64,000 nucleotides of DNA from an uncultured Gammaproteobacteria bacterium (GTDB taxonomy: Bacteria; Patescibacteriota; Microgenomatia; UBA10105; UBA927). The stretch is from positions 11,306 to 75,305 of the forward strand of contig CAZPNL010000001.1 of NCBI GenBank assembly GCA_964588145.1, in the 5' to 3' direction. The position numbers were made by a program, and so were the translations under genes. How positions within the stretch are numbered: the stretch's first letter is position 1; each line of letters opens with the position of its first letter. Of the stretch, positions 18,794-37,912 are shown piece by piece. The notes beneath the pieces were generated by a model. That model did no database searches. It saw nothing but the letters and a program-made list of their open reading frames with translations, and had not been told where the DNA came from.

Positions 18794-18796
18794 GCT

Positions 18797-19897: not shown

Positions 19898-19903
19898 AAA
19901 TAT

Positions 19904-21294: not shown

Positions 21295-21305
21295 GAACTT
21301 ACTGT

Positions 21306-22088
21306 ATGGACTTTAAGATACAAGGGAAAAAAGCACTTATTACTGGAGCAGGGCGGGGGCTGGGTGCATCCATCGTAGAGCATTTAGTGGCCGAAGGGGT
21401 ACATGTGGCAATTGTGTCTAGAGGTAAAGCTGCTCTTAAGGAATTGTTTGCATCTATAGGAGGAGCAAAAGCAGGGCATATCATGATGGCAGAGGACATG
21501 ACTGCCGAGGGTGTGCCTGTGAAAGTGTGTAAAGAGATTCAAAAAAAGTTTGGGTCTCCTGACATCATTGTAAATAATTTAGGAGATACGCTAGATATCA
21601 GAGATCCATATTGCACGATAGATGATTGGCGTAGGGTATTTCGTATCAATTTAGAAGTAGGGATTGAAATAAACAATTTTTTCATACCTGCCATGCAAAA
21701 AAACCAGTGGGGGAGGATTGTGCACATTACCTCTATTGCAGCTCTTGAAAATCAAGGCCCCGTGCCGTACTGTGCCGTAAAAGCAGCTGTGACAAGTTAT
21801 GTACGCAGTATGGGTCGGATACTTTCACCTGACAACATCATCATGACATCGGTACTTCCTGGAGCTGTGATGACAAAGGGTGGATATTGGGATATAGCCA
21901 GTGTTACTAAAAAAGATCATGTAAAGAAATATCTGGATGAGCGAATGGCTATTAAGCGCTTTGGGTCACCTGAAGAGATAGGATCTGTCGTCGCATTTTT
22001 GTGCTCCGAACATAGTTCATTTATGGTAGGATCGATGGTGCCTGTAGATGGTGGGCAGGGGAGAGTATTTTTTCGTCAAGATGTGTAA
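21306..22088 (+). CDS. short-chain dehydrogenase/reductase (classical SDR)
   Basis: KKALITGAGRGLGASI glycine-rich motif. YCAVKAA matches the YxxxK catalytic motif. Confidence 0.7.
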   Translation: MDFKIQGKKALITGAGRGLGASIVEHLVAEGVHVAIVSRGKAALKELFASIGGAKAGHIMMAEDMTAEGVPVKVCKEIQKKFGSPDIIVNNLGDTLDIRDPYCTIDDWRRVFRINLEVGIEINNFFIPAMQKNQWGRIVHITSIAALENQGPVPYCAVKAAVTSYVRSMGRILSPDNIIMTSVLPGAVMTKGGYWDIASVTKKDHVKKYLDERMAIKRFGSPEEIGSVVAFLCSEHSSFMVGSMVPVDGGQGRVFFRQDV

Positions 22089-22093
22089 TTTTT

Positions 22094-22903
22094 ATGAATA
22101 TTTCGAAATCAAGTTTTGATATAACCAAAAATAACCGTTTGCGCTATCAGATCGCTGAGATAGTCTATAACGCTCAAGATGGTCATATCCCAAGTGCTTA
22201 CTCCATCGTTGAAATACTTTCTGTACTTTTTGGATCGTTTCTTCGGTATGATGCCAATAATCCCAAATGGAATGAGCGTGATTTTTTTATCCTAAGTAAG
22301 GGTCACGGAAGTGTGGCTTTATATTTGATGCTTGAGAAATATGGATTTATTACAAAAAAAGACTTGGATAAAAAAGGTACGCTTCAGGGTATACTTGGTG
22401 GACATCCGGATAGAACTCGTATCCCTGGTATAGAGGCATCTACAGGGTCACTGGGGCATGGTTTTCCTATGAGTGTGGGGTTAGCATTAGGTCTCCGAAT
22501 ACAAAAACGAAATAATCGGGTTATCACAATTATAGGAGATGGAGAAAGTAATGAAGGAACCATATGGGAATCAGCTCTTTTGGCAGCACATCATATGCTT
22601 GGCAATTTGCTTGTGATTGTGGATAAAAATAAATCAACAGATGCACTGTTGTCCATCCCTGAAATGGCTAAAAAGTGGGATGCGTTTGGTTGGGAAGCAT
22701 ATGAGGTGGATGGGCATAACCAAGAAGAGTTTGCGCAGTTGCTTAATCAGTTGAAGTTTAACGATATGCGAAAACCGAAAGTAATAGTAGCACATACGAT
22801 TAAAGGAAAAGGTGTGTCATTTATTGAAAATGTAGGTTCTTGGCATTCGAAAGTCCCTAGCGCGGAAGAGTTAGATTTGATAAGGAAAGAGCTTAGAGTT
22901 TAG
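22094..22903 (+). CDS. transketolase, N-terminal (ThDP-binding) subunit
   Basis: HIPSAYSIVEIL...ILSKGHGSVALY...GSLGHGFPMSVGLALG...IGDGESNEGTIWE matches split-transketolase N-terminal sections. Confidence 0.75.
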   Translation: MNISKSSFDITKNNRLRYQIAEIVYNAQDGHIPSAYSIVEILSVLFGSFLRYDANNPKWNERDFFILSKGHGSVALYLMLEKYGFITKKDLDKKGTLQGILGGHPDRTRIPGIEASTGSLGHGFPMSVGLALGLRIQKRNNRVITIIGDGESNEGTIWESALLAAHHMLGNLLVIVDKNKSTDALLSIPEMAKKWDAFGWEAYEVDGHNQEEFAQLLNQLKFNDMRKPKVIVAHTIKGKGVSFIENVGSWHSKVPSAEELDLIRKELRV

Positions 22904-23107
22904 ATTGCGTCAGACATCACGCGTTAGGCGTCACACCAACTGAAGTATGATTTTGTCATTGCGAGGAATTGCATAGTTTTTAGCGAAGATGACGTGGCAA
23001 TCTTTTCAGGTTTCGAGTTTTGGAAGTTGAAAGTAACAATTGAACAATATAATAATTTAGCAATTTAGCTCAATTTCGACAAGGTTAATGGGGCAAGCAA
23101 TTTATTT

Positions 23108-24040
23108 ATGAGTGCATACGGAAATATACGACAAGCTTTTGCAGATACTGTATTGGAAGTTGGGAAAATTGACCCAAAACTTGTGGTGCTTGTCAGTGAT
23201 ATCACGCATTTTAAGCTTCAACCATTTGCACGGGCATGTCCAGGTAGATATTACAATTTGGGTGTTTGTGAGCAATCCATTCTATCAATGTCAGCTGGTA
23301 TGGCTATGCTTGGGTTGTATCCGGTGGTGCATACCATTACCCCGTTTCTCATTGAGCGTGGATATGAGCAAATTAAAGACGATTTTGGATATCAAAAGTT
23401 ACCTGTAAATATAATTACCGTCGGATCTTCTTTTGATTATGCACAGCTTGGTACGACACATCACTCATACGGTGATTTTGCACTGATGAAGACGATTGAA
23501 AATATGCAAATACTGTATCCTTCTACAACTCTTGAATTTAATGAACTGTTTAAGCAGTCATATAGCAATAAGATGCCAACTTATACGCGTATTCCTGGGG
23601 CTGAGCATGCAGAAATATTTCCAAAATCAAAAATAAAGTTAGGCAAGGGAATTCTTGTACGGCCAGGGAAAAAGGTAACCATTGTTGCTGTAGGAGTGCA
23701 GCTGAAGACTGTCATGGACGCCTTGAATTCGCTTTTACGGTTAAAAATAAATCCTGAGATTATTTATATACATACAGTACGACCACTGGATAGTCACATG
23801 ATCATAGAGAGCGTGAAGCGGACAAAACACTGCTTAGTTATTGAGGAACATTCTGCATATGGGGGCGTATCTGACGATGTCCTTAGAATAACGCGAAATA
23901 TGGGAAATATTCGCCATGCAAGTATCAATATTGGAGACAAATTTATTCATCATTATGGTACGTATGAGCAGATCTGTGAGCTACTTGGATTTACTCTAAA
24001 AAATGTGGTTGATACTGTCAAAAAACTTATTGAATTCTAA
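23108..24040 (+). CDS. transketolase, C-terminal (pyrimidine-binding + C-terminal domain) subunit
   Basis: Transketolase C-section architecture. Separated from the N-subunit gene by an atypical 204-bp spacer. Confidence 0.7.
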   Translation: MSAYGNIRQAFADTVLEVGKIDPKLVVLVSDITHFKLQPFARACPGRYYNLGVCEQSILSMSAGMAMLGLYPVVHTITPFLIERGYEQIKDDFGYQKLPVNIITVGSSFDYAQLGTTHHSYGDFALMKTIENMQILYPSTTLEFNELFKQSYSNKMPTYTRIPGAEHAEIFPKSKIKLGKGILVRPGKKVTIVAVGVQLKTVMDALNSLLRLKINPEIIYIHTVRPLDSHMIIESVKRTKHCLVIEEHSAYGGVSDDVLRITRNMGNIRHASINIGDKFIHHYGTYEQICELLGFTLKNVVDTVKKLIEF

Positions 24041-24043: not shown

Positions 24044-26710
24044 TTATTCTTCGTGGACTCCCGCGTAAAATGCTCCTATTGGAATGAGTACTGCAGCTAT
24101 CATGGCTACAAACAACCCGAAACGTAATAGAGGATTTGGCCAGTATTCCAATGTTATGTGATGATTTCCTTTACCTATTGGGATACCCATAAATGCCTGA
24201 TTGACCTGATATATTAGTTGGTTATTTCCATCAAGAGTTAGTTTCCATTTTGTGTCGTAGGGATAATGAAAAACCAGCCAGCCACTGTTTGGTGCAGTAA
24301 ATGTAAAGGCAAATGTATCTGAGTTGTACTTTTGTATAGACTCGATATATGTCATGAAATTTTTTCTATAAGAAAATTTTAAGGTAGTGGGGAGTTGAGT
24401 ATCTGCGGGGAGCGCTATGGTAAGAGTTTGGGTTTGAATATTTCCTACGTCAAATGTTTGCGGAATAGAGAGGTTTCCTTGTGCTGGGGAATATTTTGTA
24501 TCTGTTGAAACGAGCGTAATTATATCTCGATCTCCTTCTATGAGGCTACTTGCTAGATAGTTGGGAAATGTATCCGGTAGGAGAATACTGCAAAGAATGA
24601 ATTCAGATTGAATTTTTGAATTTTCAGTATTGCAAATAACTGAAGAGGTATCAAAGGAGTCGACAATATTTTCTTTTGGTAACAAATTATTTATAGATTG
24701 GATGGAAGAAAAATAATTTGGGGCGGTTGATGGTATTTGTCCATCTACTGTGATTATCGAACGGTTTTGCTTGGTGGTGTTAATTGTATCGAATGCTTCA
24801 GGAGTGTAGGGAACTGCTGCTTGTGCAAAATATACGAGTCGATTGTCGTTTTGATTGAGATATGTTTGAAGTGAGGGATTTGAGAGTGCTTTATATGTAA
24901 TATGTTTTGTATAGTAGGGGTTGCCAGGAATTTCTAGTTGATCAAAATCTACGTAATGATAGTAGAACGTTTGTCCTTTTCTAGAATTATTTGTTGCTCC
25001 ATATGTGGGAATAAGTGTAATTTTTTGGGTGTTGTAATATTGCCGAAATGGGATGATTCCAGGGTTTTGAAAATCAACGATTGCTGGAGAAGTGTTTGGT
25101 GAAAAGATAAAGGGTTGCACTTGAAGATTTGTCATATCCACGTTCATAAATCGTTGTGCCCCAGCAAAGTCAATTGTATACATGAGGCATAGTATGGCAA
25201 CATATATTTTCTTTTTTGTTACGTAAGTGGGTATAGAGATATTTTTTATTATGAAAACCATGCTTATTAAAGTGATTTGAATCAATACGTACTTTTGTAC
25301 AAGCACATTCACATTAAGATAAGAATAGATTGAGTAAAAGCCAATAGTTAGTGTTATCAATATGTATTTAATAAGATATATTTTTGTTTTTTCTTGGTGT
25401 TGAAATATAGCTTTAATACCCAAAGAGATTGGAACCACTATTAAAAATGGGAGCATATGAGCAGCTCCTTTCATATCACGAACGATCAGATTGAAGGGAT
25501 TTGTGATTGCGTTTATCCAGTGGGGAATAGCTGTGAGTCCAAATGCTTCCCTTGGGCTATTGAGAAGCCATACAAATACAAGTGTGCCGATGATAATATA
25601 TCTTTTTGATCCTTTGCTCAAAATGGCGCCAATGCCAGCTAACAATATGCTAGTAAATCCGATGTAATGCCATGTGATGGTATTCCACCATTTTTGGCTA
25701 GGTCCATTGTCAAAATCTATGAGTCCAAATGATGTATCTGGTTTGAAATAGTCACCCACGCCGACACGGAAAAAATATGCATATGGATTAATGATACTTT
25801 GGAGATTTGAAAATCTGTTGGGTTCATCGCCAAAGTCGTAGTCTTTGTAAGAAGTAAGCAAATACATAAGGGGAGCAAGCATAAGTAGACAGAGGATCAA
25901 TGTGAGAAGTATTTTTGGAGTTATGTTTCGTATATAAAGTTTGAGATATTGTCGTTTAAAAATTTTTATTTCTTTGTAGTTTTTTATGATAAACCACACC
26001 AGCGTACAAAGTATAAAAATATGGATGCTTTGGTAGAAATATCCTAACGCAATAATCGGATATCCAATGATAGCGGCAGTCATGAGAAAGATAAAGATAT
26101 TAAGATATTTTATATTTTTGGTTTCAGCAAATTTGAGTATAAAGTGGACAACCATGGGATACATGCTGTACACAAACGCTGGTTCTGTGCCGTAGGCGAT
26201 ATAAAACGTTGGTATGAGGATAGTATTTCCTAACACCATCATCAGGAGTGTAATAAGAGTATTTTTTGTCCATCGCCCAATATGCAAATAAATGCCTGCA
26301 GAGCGCATAAACATTGAAGGTATGTGGTAGCAAATAGAGTAGATAATATACCAACCGCGAGCTTGATCAGACAATAGATGATGGAAGAACATATAGATAA
26401 AAGCTGTGAGTGTGTGATTGGGTTGAAAGTATCCTGCCCCGAGCACAAAGTACGTGTTAGGCATCTGTGCGTATGGATCCCAAAGTGCTATACCAGCCTG
26501 GAGGAGGTTTGAGAGGAGGTTAAACACTTGAAAAAATACAAATTCCTCATCTCCACTTTTTGAAAAACTGAAGGTAAAAAATAGAAACCTATCTGGCATG
26601 ATAAAACACATAAGAGTGTATGTGATGAGTACTGATATGAAGACAAGGAATGTCGCATTCAGGTATTTTTTGTAGTGAAATAAATGAATATATGTGTTTA
26701 TACTGTGCAT
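24044..26710 (-). CDS. YfhO-family-like large membrane glycosyltransferase (880-aa subtype)
   Basis: 888 aa and polytopic. C-terminal WLVFHYPYDTKWKLTLDGNNQLIYQVNQAFMGIPIGKGNHHITLEYWP is a YfhO-type signature. Paralog of 31864..34503. Confidence 0.55.
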   Translation of the reverse strand: MHSINTYIHLFHYKKYLNATFLVFISVLITYTLMCFIMPDRFLFFTFSFSKSGDEEFVFFQVFNLLSNLLQAGIALWDPYAQMPNTYFVLGAGYFQPNHTLTAFIYMFFHHLLSDQARGWYIIYSICYHIPSMFMRSAGIYLHIGRWTKNTLITLLMMVLGNTILIPTFYIAYGTEPAFVYSMYPMVVHFILKFAETKNIKYLNIFIFLMTAAIIGYPIIALGYFYQSIHIFILCTLVWFIIKNYKEIKIFKRQYLKLYIRNITPKILLTLILCLLMLAPLMYLLTSYKDYDFGDEPNRFSNLQSIINPYAYFFRVGVGDYFKPDTSFGLIDFDNGPSQKWWNTITWHYIGFTSILLAGIGAILSKGSKRYIIIGTLVFVWLLNSPREAFGLTAIPHWINAITNPFNLIVRDMKGAAHMLPFLIVVPISLGIKAIFQHQEKTKIYLIKYILITLTIGFYSIYSYLNVNVLVQKYVLIQITLISMVFIIKNISIPTYVTKKKIYVAILCLMYTIDFAGAQRFMNVDMTNLQVQPFIFSPNTSPAIVDFQNPGIIPFRQYYNTQKITLIPTYGATNNSRKGQTFYYHYVDFDQLEIPGNPYYTKHITYKALSNPSLQTYLNQNDNRLVYFAQAAVPYTPEAFDTINTTKQNRSIITVDGQIPSTAPNYFSSIQSINNLLPKENIVDSFDTSSVICNTENSKIQSEFILCSILLPDTFPNYLASSLIEGDRDIITLVSTDTKYSPAQGNLSIPQTFDVGNIQTQTLTIALPADTQLPTTLKFSYRKNFMTYIESIQKYNSDTFAFTFTAPNSGWLVFHYPYDTKWKLTLDGNNQLIYQVNQAFMGIPIGKGNHHITLEYWPNPLLRFGLFVAMIAAVLIPIGAFYAGVHEE

Positions 26711-26799
26711 TTGAGTTAGTAAATCGTTATTTATTAAGTATAGGGAATAAATTTATCTCGTCAACAAATACATAATTGAGGCTATAGTTTTGCTATGGT

Positions 26800-27780
26800 A
26801 TGATGCCTAGGTTGCCTATATATCGGCTTATGTCACTTGGTAATCATTCATCACTATTTTTAATTTGGGATACAAGTGTTCAGTCTATTTTTATAGGTGG
26901 GGTTCTTACCCTAATTCAAGAGGTGTCATTGCTACAAAAAGAATATGGGTATAGGCAGATTTCACTTTGTATTGTGGGTGATAACGCGGTATGTTCAGAG
27001 CATTTGACAGCTCAGGAAATTTTCAAGGCGTATCCATTTCTTCGACTACTATCCATGTATGATGTTTCGTTATCGTATATGTCTTTGGGTACATATAGGG
27101 AAGCCAGCAGTTGGGCCAAGCAGCATGATTATGAAGTGTGGCCAAAACAATCGCATATAGCCTATGAAATGTATGGAAACACCTTGTATATACAATCATA
27201 TTTTAAAAAACATCATAAAATTACCTGGGCTAGCATATCAAAGAAATATAAAGAGAAGGCGATGCGGTACTTTAGACAAAATTGTCAAGGTAAATATCCT
27301 ATTACGCTTCATATTAAAAATACTATTGGAGGGCGCCACTGTAGCAACGCCGATCAGGCAGTATGGTATAGTTTTCTCAAAATGTGTGAAGAGAAGTATT
27401 TAGATTGTGTATTTGTGCTAGTGAGTGAGGATCATGTTGATCAAAATATTGTTCGTCTCTCGAATGTACTACGTGTGCCAGACTATCCTGATAAATTAAT
27501 ACAGGATTTGGCTCTTGTACATCAATCAGCAGCCTTTATGGGTATGGCGTCGGGCCCTGCAAATATGGCAATTTTTAGTGATATTCCGTATTGTGTATTT
27601 AAGGATAAGGGGCAACATGTGCATGAAATGAAGCGTGAATTAGGTGAAAATGACAAGTATATTTTTGGTTATGAATATCAAAATATATATAGAGTTGATC
27701 ATGAGTTGCACAATCTTATTGATGCTTTTGTGCATATGTATCCTCAGATACAAAAAAATATGCATTATTTAGATTTGTGA
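26800..27780 (+). CDS. GT-B glycosyltransferase-like, GT9 (heptosyltransferase)-like C-terminal motif
   Basis: The C-terminal DKLIQDLALVHQSAAFMGMASGPANMAIFSDIPYCVF resembles the GT9 motif L-EL-ALI-A-L-IG-DSGP-HLAAA-G-P-V-LFG. The assignment is weak. Confidence 0.4.
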   Translation: MMPRLPIYRLMSLGNHSSLFLIWDTSVQSIFIGGVLTLIQEVSLLQKEYGYRQISLCIVGDNAVCSEHLTAQEIFKAYPFLRLLSMYDVSLSYMSLGTYREASSWAKQHDYEVWPKQSHIAYEMYGNTLYIQSYFKKHHKITWASISKKYKEKAMRYFRQNCQGKYPITLHIKNTIGGRHCSNADQAVWYSFLKMCEEKYLDCVFVLVSEDHVDQNIVRLSNVLRVPDYPDKLIQDLALVHQSAAFMGMASGPANMAIFSDIPYCVFKDKGQHVHEMKRELGENDKYIFGYEYQNIYRVDHELHNLIDAFVHMYPQIQKNMHYLDL

Positions 27781-27793
27781 TTATTTCAATTTC

Positions 27794-27833
27794 CGAATTA
27801 TAAAATTCGCTTCTTGTGGACTGCCTCATGAGG
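27794..27833 (+). terminator. two palindromes (cgaatt-ataa-aattcg; cctcatgagg) followed by T-rich tract downstream of GT9-like gene
   Basis: 6-bp stem and 4-nt loop at 27794-27809. A 10-bp perfect palindrome at 27824-27833, then ggtattttatcg. Confidence 0.25.
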
Positions 27834-27900
27834 TGGTATTTTATCGTATGATATATAAGTTAACTATTAATTTCATTATCGTAAAAATGAAAGGGGCTAT

Positions 27901-28587
27901 ATGAAAAATGTACAAAGTCTCGCAAAAGAGACACAGAACCAAAGAATTTTTGATTTGTATAAGTCTGACCCAATTACATTGGGACCATATTCTTCTTATA
28001 TGTGGAGACAAGATCCTCGTCATTTGGGATTTTTATTTGCACGGTATAAATTCGTTGCAAAGATGTTGCGTGGTCAAAAAACTGTATTAGAGGTAGGGTG
28101 TGGAGATGCTGTTGGTACACCGATTGTTGCTAAAGAGGTAGGAAGTGTGCATTGTCTTGATTTTGAACCATTATTGTTGGAGGATAATCGTGAAAGAATT
28201 TCCAAAAGATATCCAAATATTACTTTTGGTGTACACGATTTTACTGAAAAACCAGCAACACCTAAGAGCGATGCAGTATTTAGTTTGGATGTTATTGAAC
28301 ATATTAAACCAAATGAAGAATCAAAATTTATGGATAACATATCTGGATCATTGGGGTCGCATGGAATGTGTATTATAGGGACACCTAATATTACTGCTCA
28401 TGCGTACGCATCTTCAGTTAGTCAGCAAGGTCATATAAATCTCAAAGATTATGCATCACTTGAGCAACTCATGCGAAAATATTTTAATCAAGTTTTATTA
28501 TTTTCTATGAACGATGAAGTGGTTCATACTGGATTTTATCCTCTGGCGCATTATTTGATCGCAATAGGTATCAATCAATTAAAGTGA
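27901..28587 (+). CDS. class I SAM-dependent methyltransferase (paralog of 44603..45277)
   Basis: VLEVGCGDAVGTPIVAKE motif I. The C-terminus FSMNDEVVHTGFYPLAHYLIAIG is shared with the 44603 paralog. Confidence 0.65.
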   Translation: MKNVQSLAKETQNQRIFDLYKSDPITLGPYSSYMWRQDPRHLGFLFARYKFVAKMLRGQKTVLEVGCGDAVGTPIVAKEVGSVHCLDFEPLLLEDNRERISKRYPNITFGVHDFTEKPATPKSDAVFSLDVIEHIKPNEESKFMDNISGSLGSHGMCIIGTPNITAHAYASSVSQQGHINLKDYASLEQLMRKYFNQVLLFSMNDEVVHTGFYPLAHYLIAIGINQLK

Positions 28588-28589
28588 AT

Positions 28590-29387
28590 ATGAAAAGTCG
28601 AAATAAAAAAGTAGTTATTGTTACGGGTGGGGCTTCTGGAATAGGTAAAAATATTGCACGAGCTTTTTGTCGAGAAGATTCGTTGGTAGTAATTTGTGAT
28701 AGAGATAAAAAATTAGCACAATTAGCTGTGGAAGAACTTCAATCTATTTCACCTGATGTGACTAAGGTTATCGTAGATTTATCGGTAAAAAAAGGTTGTG
28801 ATGTACTTATAGATACTGTATATAAAAATTTTGGAGCTATTGATGTTGTGGTAAATAATGCTCGATCTGGGAAACGAGTGGGTTATTTAAATGAGACTGA
28901 ATCAACGTGGCAGGAAACCATGTCTGTGACTCTTAATGCTCCTTTTTTTATAACACAGGCTGCCATACGAGTCATGGGTGATCGTGGGGGAGTCATTATC
29001 AACGTTAGTTCAGTTGCTGCTCATGTAGTAGGGCATGATTCTCCGTCATATCATATTGCAAAAGCTGGTATAGAACAGATGACTAAATATTTTGCGGTGT
29101 ATGCGGGTGCGAAGCATATTCGCATTAATTGTGTCGCGCCTGGATTTATCATAAAAGATGAGCATATGTTCCGATTTAATCAAAAAGATAATTTTCAATA
29201 TAAGGAGATTGCAAATTTTTCTCAACCACTTGCACGCATAGGGACATCTGATGAAATAGCAAACGTGGTGACATTTTTAGCATCTTCAAAGGCATCATTT
29301 ATAACAGGGCAATGTATTGTTGTTGACGGTGGATTAACTATTCAGGACCAAAGTGGATTATTGTATAGATTTACTACAAAAGTATAA
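28590..29387 (+). CDS. short-chain dehydrogenase/reductase (classical SDR)
   Basis: KVVIVTGGASGIGKNIA and YHIAKAG (YxxxK). ATG 28590 is preferred over the GTG 28584 track start. Confidence 0.7.
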   Translation: MKSRNKKVVIVTGGASGIGKNIARAFCREDSLVVICDRDKKLAQLAVEELQSISPDVTKVIVDLSVKKGCDVLIDTVYKNFGAIDVVVNNARSGKRVGYLNETESTWQETMSVTLNAPFFITQAAIRVMGDRGGVIINVSSVAAHVVGHDSPSYHIAKAGIEQMTKYFAVYAGAKHIRINCVAPGFIIKDEHMFRFNQKDNFQYKEIANFSQPLARIGTSDEIANVVTFLASSKASFITGQCIVVDGGLTIQDQSGLLYRFTTKV

Positions 29388-29408
29388 AGTAATACTTAAA
29401 TTTTATTA

Positions 29409-30212
29409 ATGGAATTAGATTTTCGAAATACTGTCACACTTGTAACAGGGGCTGGTAGTGGCATTGGAAAAGCTATTAGTATAGAGTTGGCACATAAAAA
29501 GGGGACAGTAATACTTTGTGGAAGGACATTGGACAAATTAATGCATGTGCAGACTGAGCTAAAACATCAGGGGATAGTAGTTCAAATACATCAATGTGAT
29601 GTATCAAGTCAAATTGAAGTCAAGCAAATGGTATCACATATTGGAGCTCAATTTGGCAGAATAGACAATGTCGTTCACAGTGCGGGGGGTATAAATACTT
29701 TTGCAGATTTTGAACAATTGTCTCCACGTGATTGGGTAGATTCTTATGAAAATAATTTTCTTGGAGTTGTTTTTGTTATACAAGAGGCACTATCCTTGCT
29801 TCGTAAAAGTGCATATCCTTCGATAGTTATTATTGGATCAACCTCTGCATCTGAGCCTGGAAGTTATAATCCTCACTATACTACTGCGAAAGCAGCAGTA
29901 TTGAATTTGGCAAAATATTTAGCAAATCGGTATGCTAAAGAACATATTCGTGTTAATTCTATATGTGCAGGTCCAGTTCATTCAAATTTGTGGGATAATA
30001 ATGTTCAATTTGTAGCAACAAAATTTAACGTATCGCTTGATGAAACGAGGTCAAACTTTGAACATCAGGAGACGGTCAAGGTGCCATTGGGTAGGATTGG
30101 AGAGCCAGCCGATATTTCAGGAATAGTACTATTTTTATTATCAAAACAAGCAAGTTGGATAAGTGGTACAACTATTAAAGTTGATGGAAATAAGCATAGA
30201 AGTATGGATTGA
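29409..30212 (+). CDS. short-chain dehydrogenase/reductase (classical SDR)
   Basis: TVTLVTGAGSGIGKAIS and YTTAKAA (YxxxK). Confidence 0.7.
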   Translation: MELDFRNTVTLVTGAGSGIGKAISIELAHKKGTVILCGRTLDKLMHVQTELKHQGIVVQIHQCDVSSQIEVKQMVSHIGAQFGRIDNVVHSAGGINTFADFEQLSPRDWVDSYENNFLGVVFVIQEALSLLRKSAYPSIVIIGSTSASEPGSYNPHYTTAKAAVLNLAKYLANRYAKEHIRVNSICAGPVHSNLWDNNVQFVATKFNVSLDETRSNFEHQETVKVPLGRIGEPADISGIVLFLLSKQASWISGTTIKVDGNKHRSMD

Positions 30213-30253
30213 GTATAGACAATACTGCTTAAATTTGCATATAGTACAAAGCT

Positions 30254-30982
30254 ATGATTACTGTGATGATACCTGCATACAATGAGGAGAAGCGACTTGC
30301 TGGTACAATAGAAAATCTTATAGTTGCATCTAAGCGTTCAGGACGAGCAAAATTAGATATTATCATTGTGAATGATGCTAGTTGTGATAATACGCAGAAT
30401 GTCATAGATCAACTTGAAAAGAAATATTCATTTGTACGTCACATTCAACACGCGAGGAATGCTGGAGTGGGTAAGGGTATCAAAGAAGCAATTGCTATAG
30501 CAAAATATGAGAAATTTATCGTGATTCCTGGAGATAATGTTGTAGCACAGGATTTGATCACGCTCCTATTTCAAAATAGAAATAAAGCTGATGTGGTTGT
30601 GAGTTATTTTCTCAACAAAGAAATACGGAGTGTGAAGCGAAATTTTATATCAGGTCTCTATACGCTCATATATGACTGTACTTTTGGCGTATATGTACAG
30701 TATCTCAACGGTGTCACGATATACCAAACTGATTTTTTAAAGAAATTATACATTCGTTCAAATCGGTTTAGTGTCATTGCAGAACTTACGATCAAATCAA
30801 TTCTTAAGGGTGCGTCGTTTCATGAAGTTTCTGGAGTCTATGTAAAAGAGGGAATGGTGGATAGTACATCATTTTCCTTAAAAAGTTTACTTGAAGTGAT
30901 TTCTATGTACATATTGATGTTGTATGAAATTAAATTTAAGCGTAAGAGGGAGTATGCAGCTGTGCCGTTTCGAATACCATAG
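30254..30982 (+). CDS. GT2 glycosyltransferase, polyprenol-phosphate-sugar synthase-like (GtrB/DPM1/CsbB-like)
   Basis: 242 aa. IPAYNEEKRL ... DIIIVNDASCDNT is a GT-A DxD-type N-terminus. Size and architecture match lipid-phosphate sugar synthases. Confidence 0.65.
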   Translation: MITVMIPAYNEEKRLAGTIENLIVASKRSGRAKLDIIIVNDASCDNTQNVIDQLEKKYSFVRHIQHARNAGVGKGIKEAIAIAKYEKFIVIPGDNVVAQDLITLLFQNRNKADVVVSYFLNKEIRSVKRNFISGLYTLIYDCTFGVYVQYLNGVTIYQTDFLKKLYIRSNRFSVIAELTIKSILKGASFHEVSGVYVKEGMVDSTSFSLKSLLEVISMYILMLYEIKFKRKREYAAVPFRIP

Positions 30983-30992
30983 ATATTTATAA

Positions 30993-31745
30993 TTATATTT
31001 TTATAATTTTGAAACACATGCCATGCCAACAATAGTGAAAGAGAGGTTCTGTTTTGATATTGTGGTGTGAAGCGAGAAATTCTTTCCAAGCTTTTTTCTC
31101 TCCAAGGTTTTCATTATTGTTAAATGCATTCCAGTCGTCAAACATGATGATGCTATTTTTTTGTAATAGGGGATATATAAAATTTAGCACCGTTTTTGCT
31201 GATTCATATAAATCGCAATCGATATTTACAATGGCAATCTTAGGAAATTTTTGTTTTTTGTGTAAAGCGGGGGTGAGAATTTTGTCATAGAAGCCTTTAA
31301 TTAAATGAATATATTTCAAATTTCCTCCGTGTTTTTTGATACTGTCACTGACAGATTCAAGCGAGCAGGCATATTGACCTTGAAAAAATTCCCCAGTGTC
31401 ATCAACATGTTTTGGTTCGGGTAGACCGCTAAATGAGTCGAATCCGAAGAGTGTCGGTTTCTGAACATATTTTTTCATGCATTCTGCTGCGTACCAAAGC
31501 GAATAGCCTTTGTAGACACCAAATTCATAGTAGGCGCCTGTTCGTAGCGTATTTAGCTTGTGTGCTGTTACAAATATTTTTTTGAGCGTAACTGGGGTAC
31601 AGGGGGTGGCTGGGCTAAATGACCCTGAAATTATATCTCTCAAAGCATCGATATGTTTAACGATGTCTATTCGTAGAGATTTTGTCACAAATGTTTTGAT
31701 TTTTCCTGCAATGTGAAGTGACGTGCAAAATATATACTTATCCAT
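30993..31745 (-). CDS. TylF/MycF-family SAM-dependent O-methyltransferase-like
   Basis: YYEFGVYKGYSLWYAAE ... IAIVNIDCDLYESAKTVLNFIYPLLQKNSIIMFDDW are TylF-family motifs. Paralog of 36195..36956. Confidence 0.6.
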   Translation of the reverse strand: MDKYIFCTSLHIAGKIKTFVTKSLRIDIVKHIDALRDIISGSFSPATPCTPVTLKKIFVTAHKLNTLRTGAYYEFGVYKGYSLWYAAECMKKYVQKPTLFGFDSFSGLPEPKHVDDTGEFFQGQYACSLESVSDSIKKHGGNLKYIHLIKGFYDKILTPALHKKQKFPKIAIVNIDCDLYESAKTVLNFIYPLLQKNSIIMFDDWNAFNNNENLGEKKAWKEFLASHHNIKTEPLFHYCWHGMCFKIIKI

Positions 31746-31757
31746 ATTGCTTCCTAG

Positions 31758-31778
31758 TTGAAATGAGCTTCATTTGAA
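31758..31778. promoter_or_regulatory. imperfect palindrome TTGAAATGA-gct-TCATTTGAA in divergent promoter region (candidate operator)
   Basis: Lies between the minus-strand methyltransferase start (31745) and the plus-strand YfhO-like start (31864). A TATACT -10-like hexamer sits at 31781-31786. Confidence 0.25.
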
Positions 31779-31863
31779 CCTATACTGAGTATTATAATTT
31801 TTTGGTAGTGCTATTGCTTCTGCCGACGTACTCAATATTTATTTTTATTTGTAACTTTTCCTC

Positions 31864-34503
31864 ATGAATCATACCATGCGAAATGTGCAAAGAATATTAT
31901 CAAATTGTTGCTTTATAGTTATTTGTTCAATTGCTTCCTATATTGTCATGTGTTTTATTATGCCAGATCTCTTTGTCTGGCATACTGTTAGTTTTATGCG
32001 ATTAGGGGATGCTGCACACAACTATCTTTCAACTTTTATGCTTGTGCAAAATGCGTTTCGGGGGGGCGTTGGACTGTGGGATTACTTTGATCAGATGCCA
32101 TTTGCATATACGTATGTGGCAGGAGGAATACAATTTGCAAATATAGTAACTGCGATATCTTATATCTTACTTTCTCGTTTTTTCTTTACGCAGTCTCATG
32201 CGTATCACACATTGTATTCTAGTCTCTATTACCTACCTTCTATTTGTGTAAATACTGCAGGTATGTATCTATTACTTCATAGATTTGTGCGTGATCGTTT
32301 GGTGATGTTTATTTCGTTAGTAGTTTCGAGTTCTCTTTATATGCCGCAAATTTTTTTGGGCCTTAGTAGTGGAAGTTTATATGTTTTTTTTCCGCTTGTA
32401 ATGCATTTTTTCTTATCACTACTGGAATCAGGTTCGATGTATTATTTTCTATTATTTGTTGTTGCTTTGGCCTTGGGGTTTGGGATGAATTTTGAAGTAG
32501 CATCGGGATATTGGTACGGAGGGATACATTATTTTTTAACTTCTGCACTGGTTTGGTATGTTGTTACGAGACGACTTAAAATACTGCATCGTTTTGGTCG
32601 AATACGATTCGCATTACGTCGTAGGCAATTGATTTTTGTAGGTGCTGCGTTTATTTGTTGTTTTTTTCTCCTGTTGCCGCTTTTGGGGTGGGGGATAGTG
32701 CTAAAGAATGATTTTAATATTTCTGATACTACGGGTAGATTTGCAAATTCTATATTTTTAAATTTCGCAGGATATTTTAATCGTGTAGGGCAGAGCTTTG
32801 CACCACCTGGTGAATTTTTAATGCGTCTCGTCAATTTTTCAGATAATCATTGGGAGTCTTCGTATATGTATATCGGATTTACTGCGGTGTTTCTTAGTAT
32901 TTGTGCACTTGTGTTTTCGAAAGATTCAAAACGATGGATATTTGCTGCAACATTATTTTGTATTTGGTGGGTGAATAGTCCTCGAGAAATGACCGGATGG
33001 CAGGCTCCAATACATTGGTTTACTGCTGTAACAAATCCTCTCAACTTTATCATACGCTCTTTTCATATGATAGGTGCTTTTATGACACCATTTTTATTTG
33101 CGACAATTGTGGGCGTCGGACTACAGTCATTAAATGATTTCAATGCAGAAGGCATGAAGAAGATGTCTATACTTAAGCTGTCTTTAGCGATGGCTTTATT
33201 ACTCGCATTTTATAGTTATGTATCAGGGCAGGTGTCTTCTGAGGTTGTTATATATCTATATCTTGGTATTGGTGCTTCTTTGATATTATTAGTTCTTAGA
33301 CTAGTGCCACTCCCACATCATGTAAAAAAAATTGTACTTTTGGTGGGCATAATAGGTTTATTTGTACGAGATGGATATTATCAGGTGGGATACCTCAGGA
33401 TCTGGACTGATCGAATGCAGGTCATAACGCATCCAATTTCTACCTCAGAAAAGGAGATAGTACTTGATTATCAAAATCCATATATATTGCCGTTGCGAAC
33501 ATATACTGACCCGGTAAATTATTTCTTGATATCAGGTCCACTTAATGTGGATGCGGTCAATAATGATGGATTTTTTTATCGCTATGCAAATATGGCGAAG
33601 TTTTATGACATACCAGATGTATATAAACCGCGACATAAATCATATACAGAGCTATACACAGATTCAAACGTTCGTAAGTATTTGCAGGCGAATCCATATC
33701 TTATATCTGTTGCAGATTATGCGTATGTTGGGCCTAGACAAGCCTTAAGTGATATTGTACAAGGCAATTCAAGTAGGAGCGTGGTGTTGCTTGATGAGGC
33801 CTCAGATGCAAAATTTCTGACGCAAACTCTTCCTGCACAGGCTTCTTTGCAGGATCAAAGCATTGAGTATAATATATATGATTTTTCATTATCGGGCGCA
33901 GCCAAATCCGCTGAGAATGATATGGATTTGTACTTTATAAAACTTCCAAATGACTTTCCTGCATATCTAGCAACTGGTGTATTTACGAAGGATATTGGAC
34001 TTATAAGTGCAAAAGTTGGCGATAAAAGCTTACATCCTCTTCAAGGTGATCTACAAATTCCATATGCTTTTGATGTACAAAATATTAAAACTGGATATGT
34101 GACGATAAGCATGCCTAAGGGAAGTGTAGTAGAACATCAAGATTTAATTCTTCGAATTCCTAAACAGTACGCTCCAAATATTCAAAAAATAGTATCAAAC
34201 ACATCTGATACTTTTACGATTGAATATGTTTCTCAAAAACCGCAGTGGCTTGTATATCATTTTCCATATGATACAAAATGGCAAGCTATTGTGGATGGGA
34301 AAGTAGAGAAATTTTATAGAGTAAATGCCAGTTTCATAGGTTTACCTCTTGATGGGGGTACACATGTAGTATCATTGCAGTACTGGCCAGACAGCTGGAT
34401 GCGACCTGCGATATTTGTACAATTTGTCTTTATCATAATGACCCCTTTTGGTTTAATAGTTTTAGGTTTGTACTTGGGAGATAAAAAAGATACAAGTATA
34501 TGA
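31864..34503 (+). CDS. YfhO-family-like large membrane glycosyltransferase (880-aa subtype)
   Basis: 879 aa. The N-terminus aligns with the 24044(-) paralog. C-terminal QWLVYHFPYDTKWQAIVDGKVEKFYRVNASFIGLPLDGGTHVVSLQYWP. Followed by a GT2 gene with an ATGA overlap. Confidence 0.55.
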   Translation: MNHTMRNVQRILSNCCFIVICSIASYIVMCFIMPDLFVWHTVSFMRLGDAAHNYLSTFMLVQNAFRGGVGLWDYFDQMPFAYTYVAGGIQFANIVTAISYILLSRFFFTQSHAYHTLYSSLYYLPSICVNTAGMYLLLHRFVRDRLVMFISLVVSSSLYMPQIFLGLSSGSLYVFFPLVMHFFLSLLESGSMYYFLLFVVALALGFGMNFEVASGYWYGGIHYFLTSALVWYVVTRRLKILHRFGRIRFALRRRQLIFVGAAFICCFFLLLPLLGWGIVLKNDFNISDTTGRFANSIFLNFAGYFNRVGQSFAPPGEFLMRLVNFSDNHWESSYMYIGFTAVFLSICALVFSKDSKRWIFAATLFCIWWVNSPREMTGWQAPIHWFTAVTNPLNFIIRSFHMIGAFMTPFLFATIVGVGLQSLNDFNAEGMKKMSILKLSLAMALLLAFYSYVSGQVSSEVVIYLYLGIGASLILLVLRLVPLPHHVKKIVLLVGIIGLFVRDGYYQVGYLRIWTDRMQVITHPISTSEKEIVLDYQNPYILPLRTYTDPVNYFLISGPLNVDAVNNDGFFYRYANMAKFYDIPDVYKPRHKSYTELYTDSNVRKYLQANPYLISVADYAYVGPRQALSDIVQGNSSRSVVLLDEASDAKFLTQTLPAQASLQDQSIEYNIYDFSLSGAAKSAENDMDLYFIKLPNDFPAYLATGVFTKDIGLISAKVGDKSLHPLQGDLQIPYAFDVQNIKTGYVTISMPKGSVVEHQDLILRIPKQYAPNIQKIVSNTSDTFTIEYVSQKPQWLVYHFPYDTKWQAIVDGKVEKFYRVNASFIGLPLDGGTHVVSLQYWPDSWMRPAIFVQFVFIIMTPFGLIVLGLYLGDKKDTSI

Positions 34504-35219
34504 GTACCATCGGTAAAAAGAAAACAAAATCTTTGTCAGTGAGCATATTTGTTCCTGCATACAATGAGCAGGGCAATATCACAGAAGCATTACATACGAT
34601 AGAAAAGTATTCTCAAAGTCTAAAGGAATATGAAATTATCGTTATCGATGATGGGAGTACTGACAATACTTCACTGGAGCTTGCTAAGTATGCCAAAGGT
34701 AATAGGCGTATACGTATCATACGAAATACTACTAATTTAGGGATTGGCGCGGGACTGCGACTCGCATTATCTAAGGCTTGTTATGAATATTTTTCGGTAT
34801 TTCCTGGTGATAATGATATGGCAGGATGGTCACTTGAAGATCTTTTTGTAGGATATGGGAAAACTGATCTCATAGTTGCTTATCCTCGGGATGTATCGGT
34901 GCGAGGACTTGGACGGATGATCCTTTCTTCATTTTTTGTTTTACTAATGAATGTTTGCTCAGGAGTTACGTTGAAATATTATAATGGCCCTTTTGTTTGT
35001 AAAACTGGCGATCTATCACGCATTCGACTTGTGGCAAATGGATATCTGATATATGCAGAGCTAAAAGTTAAACTTATCCTACAGGGTGCAACTGTTACTG
35101 AAATACCATTTGATCACGTAGGAAGAAAATATGGAGTTTCAAAGGCAATAACATCTAAAACCGTATTGGAAACGTTGTCAGTATTTTTTCATTTGCTTCG
35201 TTATAGACTATGGAATTAG
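34500..35219 (+). CDS. GT2 glycosyltransferase, polyprenol-phosphate-sugar synthase-like
   Basis: SIFVPAYNEQGNI ... IIVIDDGSTDNT. 239 aa. Confidence 0.65.
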   Translation: MSTIGKKKTKSLSVSIFVPAYNEQGNITEALHTIEKYSQSLKEYEIIVIDDGSTDNTSLELAKYAKGNRRIRIIRNTTNLGIGAGLRLALSKACYEYFSVFPGDNDMAGWSLEDLFVGYGKTDLIVAYPRDVSVRGLGRMILSSFFVLLMNVCSGVTLKYYNGPFVCKTGDLSRIRLVANGYLIYAELKVKLILQGATVTEIPFDHVGRKYGVSKAITSKTVLETLSVFFHLLRYRLWN

Positions 35220-35689
35220 TACTCGTAGTGTTAATTTGGATTTGTACCGCTTTGCTTCATGTGCTGATTCATAAATGTATAAAGTCTTATTTTGGCACAA
35301 TACGTTTTGCTTCTATGGGAGTATATGTATTTGGCCTGGTGCTACTTTTTTTATTGCTAGATTTTTCTCAAATTAGATATTCATTGTCAGCTTTTTATAT
35401 ATTATTGACTATTATTTATGGCTTGTACTATACGGTGAGTATTAAAGATTATGGGAGCCCGACATCAAAAATAATGATGCTTCTACGATCACAACCTATG
35501 ACGTATGCAGAAATCAAGAAGCATTTTTCAGTCAAGGAGCTTCTTTTGGGAAGATTTGACGACTTATGCACCTCCCAACTTGTGTCTGTAAATAATGGAA
35601 AAGTGTATGTAAGCAATAGGGGACGATATGTAGTTTGGCTGATACGTATACACAGGAAAATAATGGGGATTACGGGGTATGGATCTTAA
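35210..35689 (+). CDS. small membrane protein: 3 TM helices + C-terminal winged-helix-like domain (paralog family, member 1 of 4)
   Basis: Three hydrophobic helices (residues ~3-21, 33-50, 59-76). These are followed by SKIMMLLRSQPMTYAEIKKHFSVKELLLGRFDDLCTSQLVSVNNGKVYVSNRG, a wHTH-like pattern. Confidence 0.55.
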   Translation: MELVLVVLIWICTALLHVLIHKCIKSYFGTIRFASMGVYVFGLVLLFLLLDFSQIRYSLSAFYILLTIIYGLYYTVSIKDYGSPTSKIMMLLRSQPMTYAEIKKHFSVKELLLGRFDDLCTSQLVSVNNGKVYVSNRGRYVVWLIRIHRKIMGITGYGS

Positions 35690-36179
35690 TATATTCCTTA
35701 GTTCATTTGTAGGTGTGATTATATTTTATGTATTTTTAATCGTGTTTATGCGTAACAGAGTTCCTATGTTACGCGCACTTATATTTTCAACGGTGATAAG
35801 TGAGATAGTGGGAGTATTTAGTTTGTATTTACTTTTATTTCAGATGTCATTGGTGCTTCAGAATATGATCGTTGCGTATATACTCGTATTTATGGTAATA
35901 GGTATGGGTGTTTTTGTATATGTTGTAGGGTTTTTTGGTATTATGACAACCTCTATACGATTAGAGTTGTTGATGCGATTATATGGGAAAGGCAGTTTAA
36001 ACTGTACTCAACGCGCCATAGAATCCATTTGTTCAGTAGATTGGCTTTTGCACTCCAGATTAAACACGCTTGTACAGTCAGGTGATATCAGTTTAGACAA
36101 TGGTACTTATAGAAATAATATAAAAGTAAATTTTTTTGTGATCAATGACATCCTTATACGTTTTTTTCGAACATTGTAG
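35679..36179 (+). CDS. small membrane protein: 3 TM helices + C-terminal winged-helix-like domain (member 2 of 4)
   Basis: Same architecture. The C-terminal part is TSIRLELLMRLYGKGSLNCTQRAIESICSVDWLLHSRLNTLVQSGDISLDNGTY. Overlaps the upstream paralog by 11 bp. Confidence 0.55.
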   Translation: MDLNIFLSSFVGVIIFYVFLIVFMRNRVPMLRALIFSTVISEIVGVFSLYLLLFQMSLVLQNMIVAYILVFMVIGMGVFVYVVGFFGIMTTSIRLELLMRLYGKGSLNCTQRAIESICSVDWLLHSRLNTLVQSGDISLDNGTYRNNIKVNFFVINDILIRFFRTL

Positions 36180-36194: not shown

Positions 36195-36956
36195 TTAAAT
36201 CGTAAGCACTCTCATGGCTTGACCATGCCAGCAATATGTAAAGGCTATTTCATAGGTAAATGATTTATGCTTTTGTATAAATTCGTTGAAAGCACGTTTT
36301 TCGCCTCTGTTGTGGTCATTGCCAAATGAATTCCAGTCATCAAACAAGAGGAGCGTATTTTTTTTCAAAAGAGGTTTGATAAAATCTAGAACGAGGCTTG
36401 TTGACGTATATAAATCGCAATCAATATTTATGATTGCAGCTGGAGGGAGATGTAATGATTTATATAAAGTTTTAGTTAGAGTTGTATCATAATACCCTTC
36501 GATAAGATGAATATTTGATAAATTTCCTCCCTTTGAGAGAATATTTTCCCTTGTGGATTGTAACGATTGAGAAAATTGGCCTTCGTAAAATTCTCCATTG
36601 TCATCTGCTTTCGGTATTTTTGGTAGACCTTTAAAAGAGTCAAACCCGTAGAGTTGTGGATTTTTGTATCCTGACTTAAGTAATTGTTTATACATTTTCC
36701 AGATTGTATAGCCTTTATAAACTCCAAATTCATAATATGCGGCATTGTCCAGTGTTTGGTACTTGTTTGCATATGAAATGCTTTGGTTCACAATTGCTGG
36801 AGCACAAGGATTTGCTGGGCTAAATTTTGAAGATATTTTTTCTCTAACACTATCAAATATACGAATGCGTTGATCGTGAGGAAAAATACCAGTTTTTGAA
36901 ATAATTTTTGTTACTATTCCTAAATAATGGAGAACTGTGCAAAAAAAGTAATTCAT
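36195..36956 (-). CDS. TylF/MycF-family SAM-dependent O-methyltransferase-like
   Basis: YYEFGVYKGYTIWKMY ... AIINIDCDLYTSTSLVLDFIKPLLKKNTLLLFDDW. About 50% identical to 30993..31745(-). Confidence 0.6.
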   Translation of the reverse strand: MNYFFCTVLHYLGIVTKIISKTGIFPHDQRIRIFDSVREKISSKFSPANPCAPAIVNQSISYANKYQTLDNAAYYEFGVYKGYTIWKMYKQLLKSGYKNPQLYGFDSFKGLPKIPKADDNGEFYEGQFSQSLQSTRENILSKGGNLSNIHLIEGYYDTTLTKTLYKSLHLPPAAIINIDCDLYTSTSLVLDFIKPLLKKNTLLLFDDWNSFGNDHNRGEKRAFNEFIQKHKSFTYEIAFTYCWHGQAMRVLTI

Positions 36957-37198: not shown

Positions 37199-37912
37199 AT
37201 GAAATCAGGTGGAATCAGTATTATTGTGCCAGCTTATAATGAGGAGCATAATATAGGGCATGCTCTAGAGCAGGTTTTGAAGACTGTCAAGTCGGTTAAA
37301 AGTGAAATAATTGTAGTTGACGATGGCAGTATAGATGGTACGGCAAAAGTAGCAAAAGAATATCAGAAAAAATATTCTCAGATAAAATATCTCAGAAATG
37401 ATACAAATCAAGGATTTGGTAAAACGTTTAAACATGGACTGACTGAAGCTAAAATGGAATATGTGACAGGATATCCAGCAGATGCAGATACAGATATTCA
37501 CCTGCTTGAGCAACTTATAGATTTGCGAAAAAAGGCCGATCTGGTAATAGGCGTGATGGATAGGAGAAAAAATCGCACTTTGGCGCGTGGATTATTATCA
37601 GGTTTATATATTGGTATCATGAATACTCTTTTTGGCATCCATTTATCCTATTACAACGGGTATTTTATTTGTAAAACAAAATTGTTACAAAGCACTCGAT
37701 TGGCAAGCGAGGGATTTACAATTTTTGCGGAGGCAAAAGTGCGACTCCTCCGTATGGGGAAAAGTTATATAGAAATTCCGTGTATTCATGTGGGTCGTGC
37801 ACATGGGAGCTCAAAGGCGCTCTCTCCAAAAAGTCTTGTGCAGGCTGTCAAAAATTTATTTGTTCTTATCTACGAGGTGCGCATACTGCCCCTGCTTGCT
37901 CCGAGGGTATGA
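37199..37912 (+). CDS. GT2 glycosyltransferase, polyprenol-phosphate-sugar synthase-like
   Basis: SIIVPAYNEEHNIGHAL ... IIVVDDGSIDGTAKVA. 237 aa. Confidence 0.65.
   Translation: MKSGGISIIVPAYNEEHNIGHALEQVLKTVKSVKSEIIVVDDGSIDGTAKVAKEYQKKYSQIKYLRNDTNQGFGKTFKHGLTEAKMEYVTGYPADADTDIHLLEQLIDLRKKADLVIGVMDRRKNRTLARGLLSGLYIGIMNTLFGIHLSYYNGYFICKTKLLQSTRLASEGFTIFAEAKVRLLRMGKSYIEIPCIHVGRAHGSSKALSPKSLVQAVKNLFVLIYEVRILPLLAPRV

Follow-up and report, generated by a model that had tools for sequence, protein, structure and literature searches.

What kind of glycosylation system is encoded where the gene of a large YfhO-family membrane protein shares an ATGA stop/start overlap with the gene of a small family-2 glycosyltransferase (GT2)? 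The question is raised by a 64,000-nucleotide (nt) stretch of contig CAZPNL010000001.1 (assembly GCA_964588145.1), hereafter the window. The original prediction had compared this gene pair to the CsbB-YfhO and GtlA-type systems of Firmicutes. Our analysis suggests a different assembly of related parts. The YfhO-like protein D, the glycosyltransferase GT2b and two small membrane proteins, X1 and Y1, are encoded by genes that overlap in succession by 4, 10 and 11 nt. We consider it rather probable that they form one translationally coupled operon for a multi-component transmembrane glycosylation module; modules of this kind have been reviewed (PMC8035078). It has the right superfamilies and general chemistry for the predicted system and differs from the CsbB, teichoic-acid and Firmicute model in its parts. 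The genes concerned are as follows, with positions in the window.

7266-9431, plus strand: A, a 721-amino-acid (aa) YfhO-family protein, predicted GT-C glycosyltransferase of the A/B subtype, in tandem with B (Pfam YfhO, 29.9 bits)
9410 (ATG) to 11575 (end), plus strand: B, a 721-aa YfhO-family protein, predicted GT-C (Pfam YfhO, 31.4 bits)
24044-26710, minus strand: C, an 888-aa paralogue of D, C/D subtype (Pfam YfhO, 54.1 bits)
30254-30982, plus strand: GT2a, 242 aa, a third member of the short GT2 family, between C and D
31864-34503, plus strand: D, an 879-aa YfhO-superfamily protein, predicted GT-C of the C/D subtype (Pfam YfhO, 43.6 bits)
34500-35219, plus strand: GT2b, a 239-aa anchorless family-2 glycosyltransferase (PF00535, 1.6e-21)
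35210-35689, plus strand: X1, 159 aa, three transmembrane (TM) helices predicted from hydropathy, C-terminal domain winged-helix-like; paralogue of X2
35679-36179, plus strand: Y1, 166 aa, a small membrane protein paralogous to X by family alignment
37199-37912, plus strand: GT2c, 237 aa, 41% identical to GT2b, the first gene of a second GT2-X-Y module
37909-38424, plus strand: X2, 171 aa, a paralogue of X1, its ATG overlapping the GT2c stop (ATGA)
38426-38947, plus strand: Y2, 173 aa, a paralogue of Y1, starting 2 nt after the X2 stop

Are the four large proteins members of the YfhO family? All four open reading frames (ORFs) that had been predicted exist, and a search with the Pfam hidden Markov model (HMM) PF09586 (model length 835), which the original prediction had proposed as a check, placed each above the gathering score of 28.5 bits. 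The matches were confined to profile positions of about 750-835, corresponding to the C-terminal 60-90 residues of A-D. Within these residues the predicted C-terminal motif (Y-PGW or Y-D-TKW ... DG ... N-F ... G-H ... Y-P) was present in all four. Full-length identity is 36% between A and B and 29% between C and D, while BLASTP found no significant similarity between A and D. By these comparisons there are two YfhO subtypes, A/B and C/D, very distant from each other, as had been claimed. The start of B overlaps the end of A by 22 nt, and C is the sole minus-strand gene of its neighbourhood. The database version of C (P0002, 851 aa) begins at an internal methionine and would lose the first TM helix. 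Because the 888-aa ORF aligns with D from residue 17 on, this longer form is probably the correct one.

A match restricted to the C-terminus could represent an accessory domain on an unrelated membrane protein, and for this reason the N-terminal part was tested in three ways. All 50 of 50 aligned full-length members of the C/D family matched YfhO above the Pfam cut-off; in the one member whose match table was inspected (D), the YfhO match was C-terminal only. Four homologues of A (P0163, P0168, P0169 and P0199) matched the model at positions 4-598, its polytopic region. The reference set for profile comparison by hhalign was an alignment around these 4-598 matchers, not around experimentally characterised YfhO sequences. 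Against this set, the A/B family aligned with a probability of 100 (E = 9e-113, 646 columns) and the C/D family, from end to end, with a probability of 99.8 (E = 1.9e-27, 719 columns). The C/D and A/B families aligned with each other over about the first 300 residues (probability 99.3).

An AlphaFold2 model of D, built from a 50-sequence alignment, reached a predicted local distance difference test score (pLDDT) of 91.3 and a predicted template modelling score (pTM) of 0.92. It consists of a helical polytopic domain up to about residue 518, a beta-rich domain at about 540-845, which would be extracytoplasmic, and a final TM helix at 846-878. When the model was compared with the PDB by Foldseek, the top matches were GT-C enzymes only (EmbA/EmbB, STT3, AglB, AftD and DPY19; probability about 1). 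In GT-C enzymes a catalytic acidic residue sits in the first loop. Asp49 of D, at least 90% conserved in the C/D family, lines up with the Asp that the YfhO set conserves in its first loop. Together, the sequence comparisons and the model of D place A-D as full-length, divergent YfhO-superfamily GT-C glycosyltransferases.

How common is the D type? An exhaustive search of 1.84 billion cluster representatives with a C+D profile found 127 proteins at E<1e-30 and 2130 at E<1e-3, with C as the second-best match; a word-index search with D returned D itself alone. The small number of close matches in so large a collection implies, as far as sequence searches can tell, that C/D is a small, rare and distinct family or branch. 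When an annotated Firmicute YfhO was sought on plasmids, the search returned mostly Bacteroidota entries named 'YfhO family protein' and no Firmicute, and only the C-terminal third aligned. The D branch appears to be deep as well as rare, and standard HMMs see it by its C-terminal domain alone. The high-confidence model of D gives a structural picture of the YfhO architecture, of which the searches found no solved example.

The second component is the glycosyltransferase. The ATGA coupling of D to GT2b had been predicted and was found at 34500-34503, where stop and start overlap by 4 nt. By phmmer, residues 10-235 of GT2b align with residues 21-249 of the Pyrococcus furiosus dolichol-phosphate mannose synthase (DPMS; here PfDPMS). 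A profile of 11 short GT2s from the window and related loci found PfDPMS as its best PDB match (2.8e-39; positions 3-227 of 235 against DPMS 22-248), followed by ArnC (3e-29) and GtrB (3e-27), all ahead of other GT2 enzymes. These best matches indicate, at the level of sequence profiles, that the short GT2 family belongs with the polyprenyl-monophosphate glycosyltransferases. The invariant Asp104 of the family corresponds in the alignment to the second Asp in the DAD motif of DPMS. Against E. coli GtrB (YfdH), the profile aligned with a probability of 98.9, and only GtrB residues 2-171 of 306 were covered.

GtrB carries two C-terminal TM anchor helices. GT2b has no C-terminal TM helices by hydropathy and alignment, and ends where its alignment reaches DPMS residue 248 of 374. 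Its sole hydrophobic stretch, at 140-158, falls in the region aligned with the DPMS catalytic and interface part. No C-terminal TM helix was seen in its paralogues in the window or in almost any of the homologues adjacent to YfhO-like genes, nearly all of which are 229-269 aa long. The description of this protein as GtrB/CsbB-like therefore holds for the polyprenyl-phosphate clade of its catalytic domain and fails for its architecture, a 239-aa protein with no membrane helices.

Enzymes of this shape might also be ordinary cytoplasmic GT2s that elongate a pyrophosphate-linked repeat unit, with the YfhO-like proteins acting as polymerases, ligases or oligosaccharyltransferases that move whole glycans. 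The lack of membrane helices would fit, as would the many soluble GT2s among the PDB matches, the presence of the oligosaccharyltransferases STT3 and AglB among the top Foldseek matches of D, and the many GT-C-like proteins around it, which could form a full assembly line. We consider this unlikely, however. The three classes of polyprenyl-monophosphate glycosyltransferases gave the GT2 family its best PDB matches and the only ones of full length, and the match takes in the DPMS interface-helix region. Tight coupling of a GT2 with a GT-C, which is typical of pairs of donor synthase and GT-C (PMC8035078), occurs at least twice in the window (D/GT2b and 61690/63237). In addition, no initiating phosphoglycosyl transferase (PF00953 or PF02397) was seen among the scanned proteins of the window; the scan took in nearly all ORFs of at least 100 aa. 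A polyprenyl-monophosphate GT2 coupled to a YfhO-type GT-C suggests instead that a lipid-phosphate-sugar is made inside and used outside by the GT-C.

What would hold such a GT2 at the membrane? The two genes that follow it, X1 and Y1, overlap their predecessors by 10 and 11 nt, respectively, and the same arrangement recurs 2 kb downstream as GT2c-X2-Y2. X1 and X2 are 30% identical (2e-10), Y1 and Y2 28%, and X and Y are themselves distant paralogues that iterated HMM searches merge. In an AlphaFold model of Y2 (pLDDT 76.7), three TM helices (3-26, 29-58 and 65-89) precede a bundle of three helices with a beta-hairpin, and a last helix ends the chain. The soluble domain is taken to be cytoplasmic because of the distribution of Lys and Arg; conserved His20 and Arg25 lie at the cytoplasmic end of the first TM helix. 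Public sequences of the family fall into more than 100 clusters at 90% identity, none with an annotation other than hypothetical. No Pfam family was assigned to X/Y, no DUF2304 match appeared for eight family members even at E values up to 5, and none of 106 homologues had a precomputed Pfam domain.

The resemblance of the soluble domain to a winged helix raises the possibility that X and Y are membrane-tethered transcription regulators of the surrounding genes. It comes from the modelled bundle and hairpin at the C-terminus and from weak similarity to ArsR/GntR and HTH_45 proteins; the fold matches of the Y2 model to ArsR/GntR were not significant (best E 0.5), and the HTH_45 match (2e-4) was found for X2 only. 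The gene order also speaks for another role: X and Y always form a tandem paralogous pair within biosynthetic operons, overlap neighbouring enzyme genes by 4-11 nt and elsewhere lie directly upstream of genes for large YfhO-like or unassigned membrane proteins. A regulatory function is thus improbable.

A role within the glycosylation module itself can take two forms. The operon coupling and the presumed cytoplasmic domain suggest that X/Y tethers or activates the anchorless GT2. The organisation of X/Y as tandem paralogues, like that of ArnE/ArnF, together with the lack of any other flippase candidate, points to the missing flippase, and so do the association with membrane-protein arrays described below and the conserved His20/Arg25 at the cytoplasmic end of the first TM helix. 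Both roles are live, and sequence comparison does not separate them. Of everything encoded here, the X/Y family, rather than the YfhO proteins, is the most novel element. How the flippase step of such glycosylation systems works is in general poorly understood; X/Y is a concrete candidate, open to testing, either for this step or for bringing the synthase to the membrane.

Does the arrangement recur in other genomes? A scan of species representatives with an 11-sequence alignment found C/D relatives in metagenome-assembled genomes (MAGs) labelled Omnitrophota (two), Planctomycetales and Gammaproteobacteria, and 20 metagenome loci contained further ones. The closest named relatives of A (37% identity) were in Candidatus Gottesmanbacteria. 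Within the fetched flanks, about 14 of 20 informative loci had a short GT2 homologue within a few kb of a YfhO-like gene. For example, a short GT2 overlaps a YfhO-like gene by 4 nt in an Omnitrophota locus (L002) and is adjacent to one in three others (L011, L015 and L021). In three loci an epimerase/dehydratase-GT2 fusion of 581-589 aa lies directly beside YfhO-like genes (L011, 4213-5982; L022, 1797-3542; L023, 1117-2868). These fusions link nucleotide-sugar modification to the presumed loading of the lipid carrier.

X-Y pairs recur in both kinds of neighbourhood. One stands just before a short GT2 (L007), and another is separated from a YfhO-like gene by a single 590-aa ORF (L019). In five loci (L026, L027, L029, L031 and L032), arrays of membrane proteins of 700-870 aa follow directly downstream of X-Y, and several of their members match YfhO. 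The link of X/Y with such arrays of large proteins is thus no weaker than its link with GT2s. The idea that X/Y is purely a GT2 anchor was weakened in this way, since five of seven further contexts had arrays and no adjacent GT2. Upstream of the arrays in L026 (3383-5528) and L031 (3381-5528), the same string was seen, namely a 72-73-aa ORF, Methyltransf_21, X and Y; L029 (3481-5564) had it with a short-chain dehydrogenase/reductase (SDR) in place of Methyltransf_21.

Two or three C/D-type paralogues, usually with other membrane proteins of about 740 aa between or beside them, were found in L003 (556-10427) and in L009, L011, L015, L018 and L020. Heavy local duplication is accordingly typical of this GT-C type.

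These results are consistent with the following mechanism. GT2b, at the cytoplasmic face, would move a sugar from a nucleotide-sugar to polyprenyl phosphate. Because it has no membrane helices of its own, it probably acts at the membrane together with the X/Y pair. The pair is predicted to be a heterodimer of two three-TM proteins with cytoplasmic winged-helix-like domains, and it would either tether and activate GT2b or carry the lipid-linked sugar across the membrane. D would then take the flipped lipid-phosphate-sugar and decorate an extracytoplasmic acceptor, probably a surface glycan or glycoprotein made by the other genes of the window. Its beta-rich C-terminal domain may bind this acceptor, as has been suggested for S. 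aureus YfhO (PMC8035078). A, B and C probably carry out similar reactions with other donors or acceptors, supplied by GT2a, GT2c and the GT2s at 48496 and 63237. The family and fold of D and GT2b, their coupling, the helix-less GT2, the paralogy and recurrence of X/Y, and the recurrent neighbourhood of GT2 and YfhO-like genes are observed; the sugar, the lipid to which GT2b transfers it, the part played by X/Y and the final acceptor are what we infer from them.

Several observations weigh against this mechanism. For the GT-C proteins, the Pfam YfhO match covers the C-terminal domain only and is marginal for A and B, the Foldseek E values to solved GT-C structures are weak (about 2e-3, with a TM-score of about 0.25), and PDB sequence searches with C/D profiles found no solved YfhO relative. 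The short GT2 family has the first Asp of the DAD motif replaced and lacks the D..SGF-type motif of DPMS. For X/Y, no similarity could be detected to GtrA, ArnE or ArnF or to any PDB entry; its profile aligned with E. coli GtrA with a probability of only 0.3. Among its 106 homologues no X/Y-GT2 fusion was found, and X/Y is often found beside arrays of large membrane proteins, YfhO-like or unassigned, where no GT2 is adjacent.

How does the module compare with the systems to which it had been likened? The B. subtilis/S. aureus CsbB-GtcA-YfhO and L. monocytogenes Lmo2550-GtcA-Lmo1079 systems, which add GlcNAc to lipoteichoic acid (LTA) or wall teichoic acid (WTA), also pair a polyprenyl-phosphate-clade GT2 with a GT-C of the YfhO type. 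The GT-C layout is common to both, with a polytopic domain at the N-terminus, a large beta-rich one at the C-terminus and a TM helix at the end. In contrast to these systems, the GT2 here has no membrane helices, neither a GtrA-family flippase nor teichoic genes were seen in the scanned window, the GT-Cs match the YfhO HMM at the C-terminus only and form separate, distant branches, and the host, judged by relatives, is not a Firmicute. The likening to a CsbB-YfhO or GtlA module thus stands for the superfamilies and the lipid-phosphate-sugar chemistry, falls for the CsbB architecture, and finds no support in the scanned window for teichoic acid or in the relatives for Firmicutes. GtlB, which had been named as a YfhO-like comparator, is listed as PMT_2-type or unassigned GT-C (PMC8035078).

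That the module adds single sugars to wall or lipoteichoic acid, as such systems do in Firmicutes, is accordingly very improbable. A GT2 of the right clade and a YfhO-type GT-C are encoded side by side, and action of CsbB/YfhO on LTA or WTA is documented (PMC8035078). However, the scanned proteins of the window had no match to a teichoic-acid, LtaS, GtrA (PF04138) or Wzx family, and no TagB/F, TarO-type or glycerol- or ribitol-phosphate genes were among them. A GtrA/GtcA flippase is likewise absent from the scanned window, GT2b lacks the membrane helices of CsbB/GtrB, and the sugar pathways nearby (see below) are those of branched, methylated sugars rather than polyol phosphates. The relatives are in Omnitrophota, Planctomycetales and MAGs of the Candidate Phyla Radiation (CPR), and none is a Firmicute. 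These lineages are not known for teichoic acids. The original prediction of Firmicute-type teichoic-acid glycosylation is therefore not borne out, and a surface polysaccharide or glycoprotein is the more likely acceptor.

By analogy, the closest experimentally studied system is GacI/GacJ/GacL of S. pyogenes. GacI, a GT2, forms a complex with the 113-aa three-TM protein GacJ encoded next to it, which raises its Vmax several-hundred-fold, and PpgS/Rv3632 of M. tuberculosis operates similarly (bioRxiv 10.1101/180810). There is thus a precedent for an anchorless GT2 with a small membrane partner and a GT-C (bioRxiv 10.1101/180810; PMC8035078). In GT2b-X1-Y1 and GT2c-X2-Y2, too, an anchorless GT2 is followed directly by a small three-TM protein. 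The differences are that GacJ and Rv3632 are single DUF2304 proteins of about 113 aa, whereas here two paralogues of 159-173 aa carry an extra winged-helix-like domain and have no DUF2304 match; that GacL is PMT_2-type and D YfhO-type; and that, unlike in GacI/GacJ/GacK/GacL, no Wzx-type flippase was recognised in the scanned window.

In E. coli ArnC-ArnE/ArnF-ArnT, one operon likewise encodes a polyprenyl-phosphate GT2, a tandem pair of small paralogous proteins and a GT-C. ArnE/ArnF is a heterodimeric flippase with four TM helices, whereas X/Y has three TM helices and a cytoplasmic domain, and ArnC has TM helices of its own while GT2b has none. In the eukaryotic dolichol-phosphate mannose synthase DPM1-DPM2-DPM3, the catalytic GT2 has no TM helix, and two small membrane subunits hold it at the membrane. 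The likeness of this complex to GT2b-X-Y is an analogy of architecture only.

Might the acceptor be a protein? The S. mutans Pgf system (PgfS, PgfM1, PgfE and PgfM2) has a GT2, two paralogous YfhO-like GT-Cs and an epimerase. It modifies the adhesins Cnm and WapA, so that YfhO-like enzymes can act on proteins (bioRxiv 10.1101/2022.10.10.511621). A similar module here, with its GT2 in the place of PgfS and its YfhO-like proteins in that of PgfM1/PgfM2, could glycosylate an S-layer protein or adhesin. Links to it were found in NCBIfam matches of B to PgfM2 (4.6e-4) and of GT2b to PgfS (4.8e-11); both are weak and far under the cut-offs of 1500 and 500 bits, respectively. PgfS, moreover, is a GtrB-like membrane protein, and no candidate acceptor protein was identified in the window. 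A Pgf-like function has some chance of being correct, if a rather small one. It bears on the acceptor alone and is compatible with the mechanism proposed above for D, GT2b and X/Y.

The module lies in what is, over the whole window (1-64000), one glycan-biosynthesis island. At least 17 of its products are polytopic membrane proteins (424-888 aa); most appear to be GT-C-like, several have no family at all, and seven have strong or weak PMT_2 matches. Five short anchorless GT2s are present, namely GT2a, GT2b, GT2c and those at 48496 and 63237. What is known in detail of multi-component transmembrane glycosylation comes almost entirely from Firmicutes and enterobacteria. The present locus, with its 17 or more polytopic proteins and five anchorless GT2s in 64 kb, suggests the same logic on a larger scale in uncultivated lineages. 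More tentatively, X/Y may represent a new and fairly widespread class of heterodimeric accessory proteins that replaces GtrA/Wzx flippases and/or the GacJ/DUF2304 activator and serves anchorless GT2s and YfhO-like GT-C arrays in uncultivated lineages (Omnitrophota, CPR), a possibility that we put forward rather than expect. If it is true, these lineages would build unusually elaborate surface glycans from branched, methylated sugars. The other genes of the island mentioned here are as follows.

15216-16754: a 512-aa fusion protein, cytidylyltransferase-like at the N-terminus and a PfkB sugar kinase at the C-terminus
17825/18797: a thiamine pyrophosphate (TPP)-dependent E1 alpha/beta pair
19904-21109: a TylCIII-like C-methyltransferase
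22094/23108 and 40590/41644: split transketolase N/C pairs
26800-27780: an ORF of 326 aa, divergent from C, for which Pfam gave no match and the fetched loci no homologue
30993-31745 and 36195-36956, minus strand: two TylF-type O-methyltransferases that bracket the D-GT2b-X1-Y1 operon
38880-40583, directly after Y2: a protein of 567 aa that has an APH/choline-kinase-like phosphotransferase domain and, at the N-terminus, a weak HAD-like match
48496-49293 and, after 7 nt, 49301-50593: a GT2 and a GT-C-like protein (weak PMT_2)
61690-63240 and 63237-63935, overlapping by 4 nt: a GT-C-like protein (weak PMT_2) and a GT2

The pairs at 48496 and 61690 indicate that the pairing of donor synthase and GT-C recurs in the island with GT-C types other than YfhO. 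The TPP-dependent sets span 17825-24040 and 40590-42642 and have SDRs and class-I methyltransferases as neighbours. Together with the C-methyltransferase, these enzymes suggest the synthesis of branched-chain, methylated sugars; many class-I methyltransferases, SDRs and epimerases are found in the window as a whole. Homologues of the transketolase halves (TK_N/TK_C), the C-methyltransferase, SDRs and alcohol dehydrogenases again lie beside YfhO-like genes in four related loci (L002, L007, L008 and L019), and a TylF homologue lies beside a short GT2 in another (L020).

The fusion at 15216-16754 is probably a kinase/nucleotidyltransferase that activates an unusual sugar; the domain order of HldE is the reverse. 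The APH/choline-kinase-like protein downstream of Y2 could add a phospho substituent, for example of the phosphocholine type, to the glycan. The GC skew is strongly positive across the whole window (0.10-0.25).

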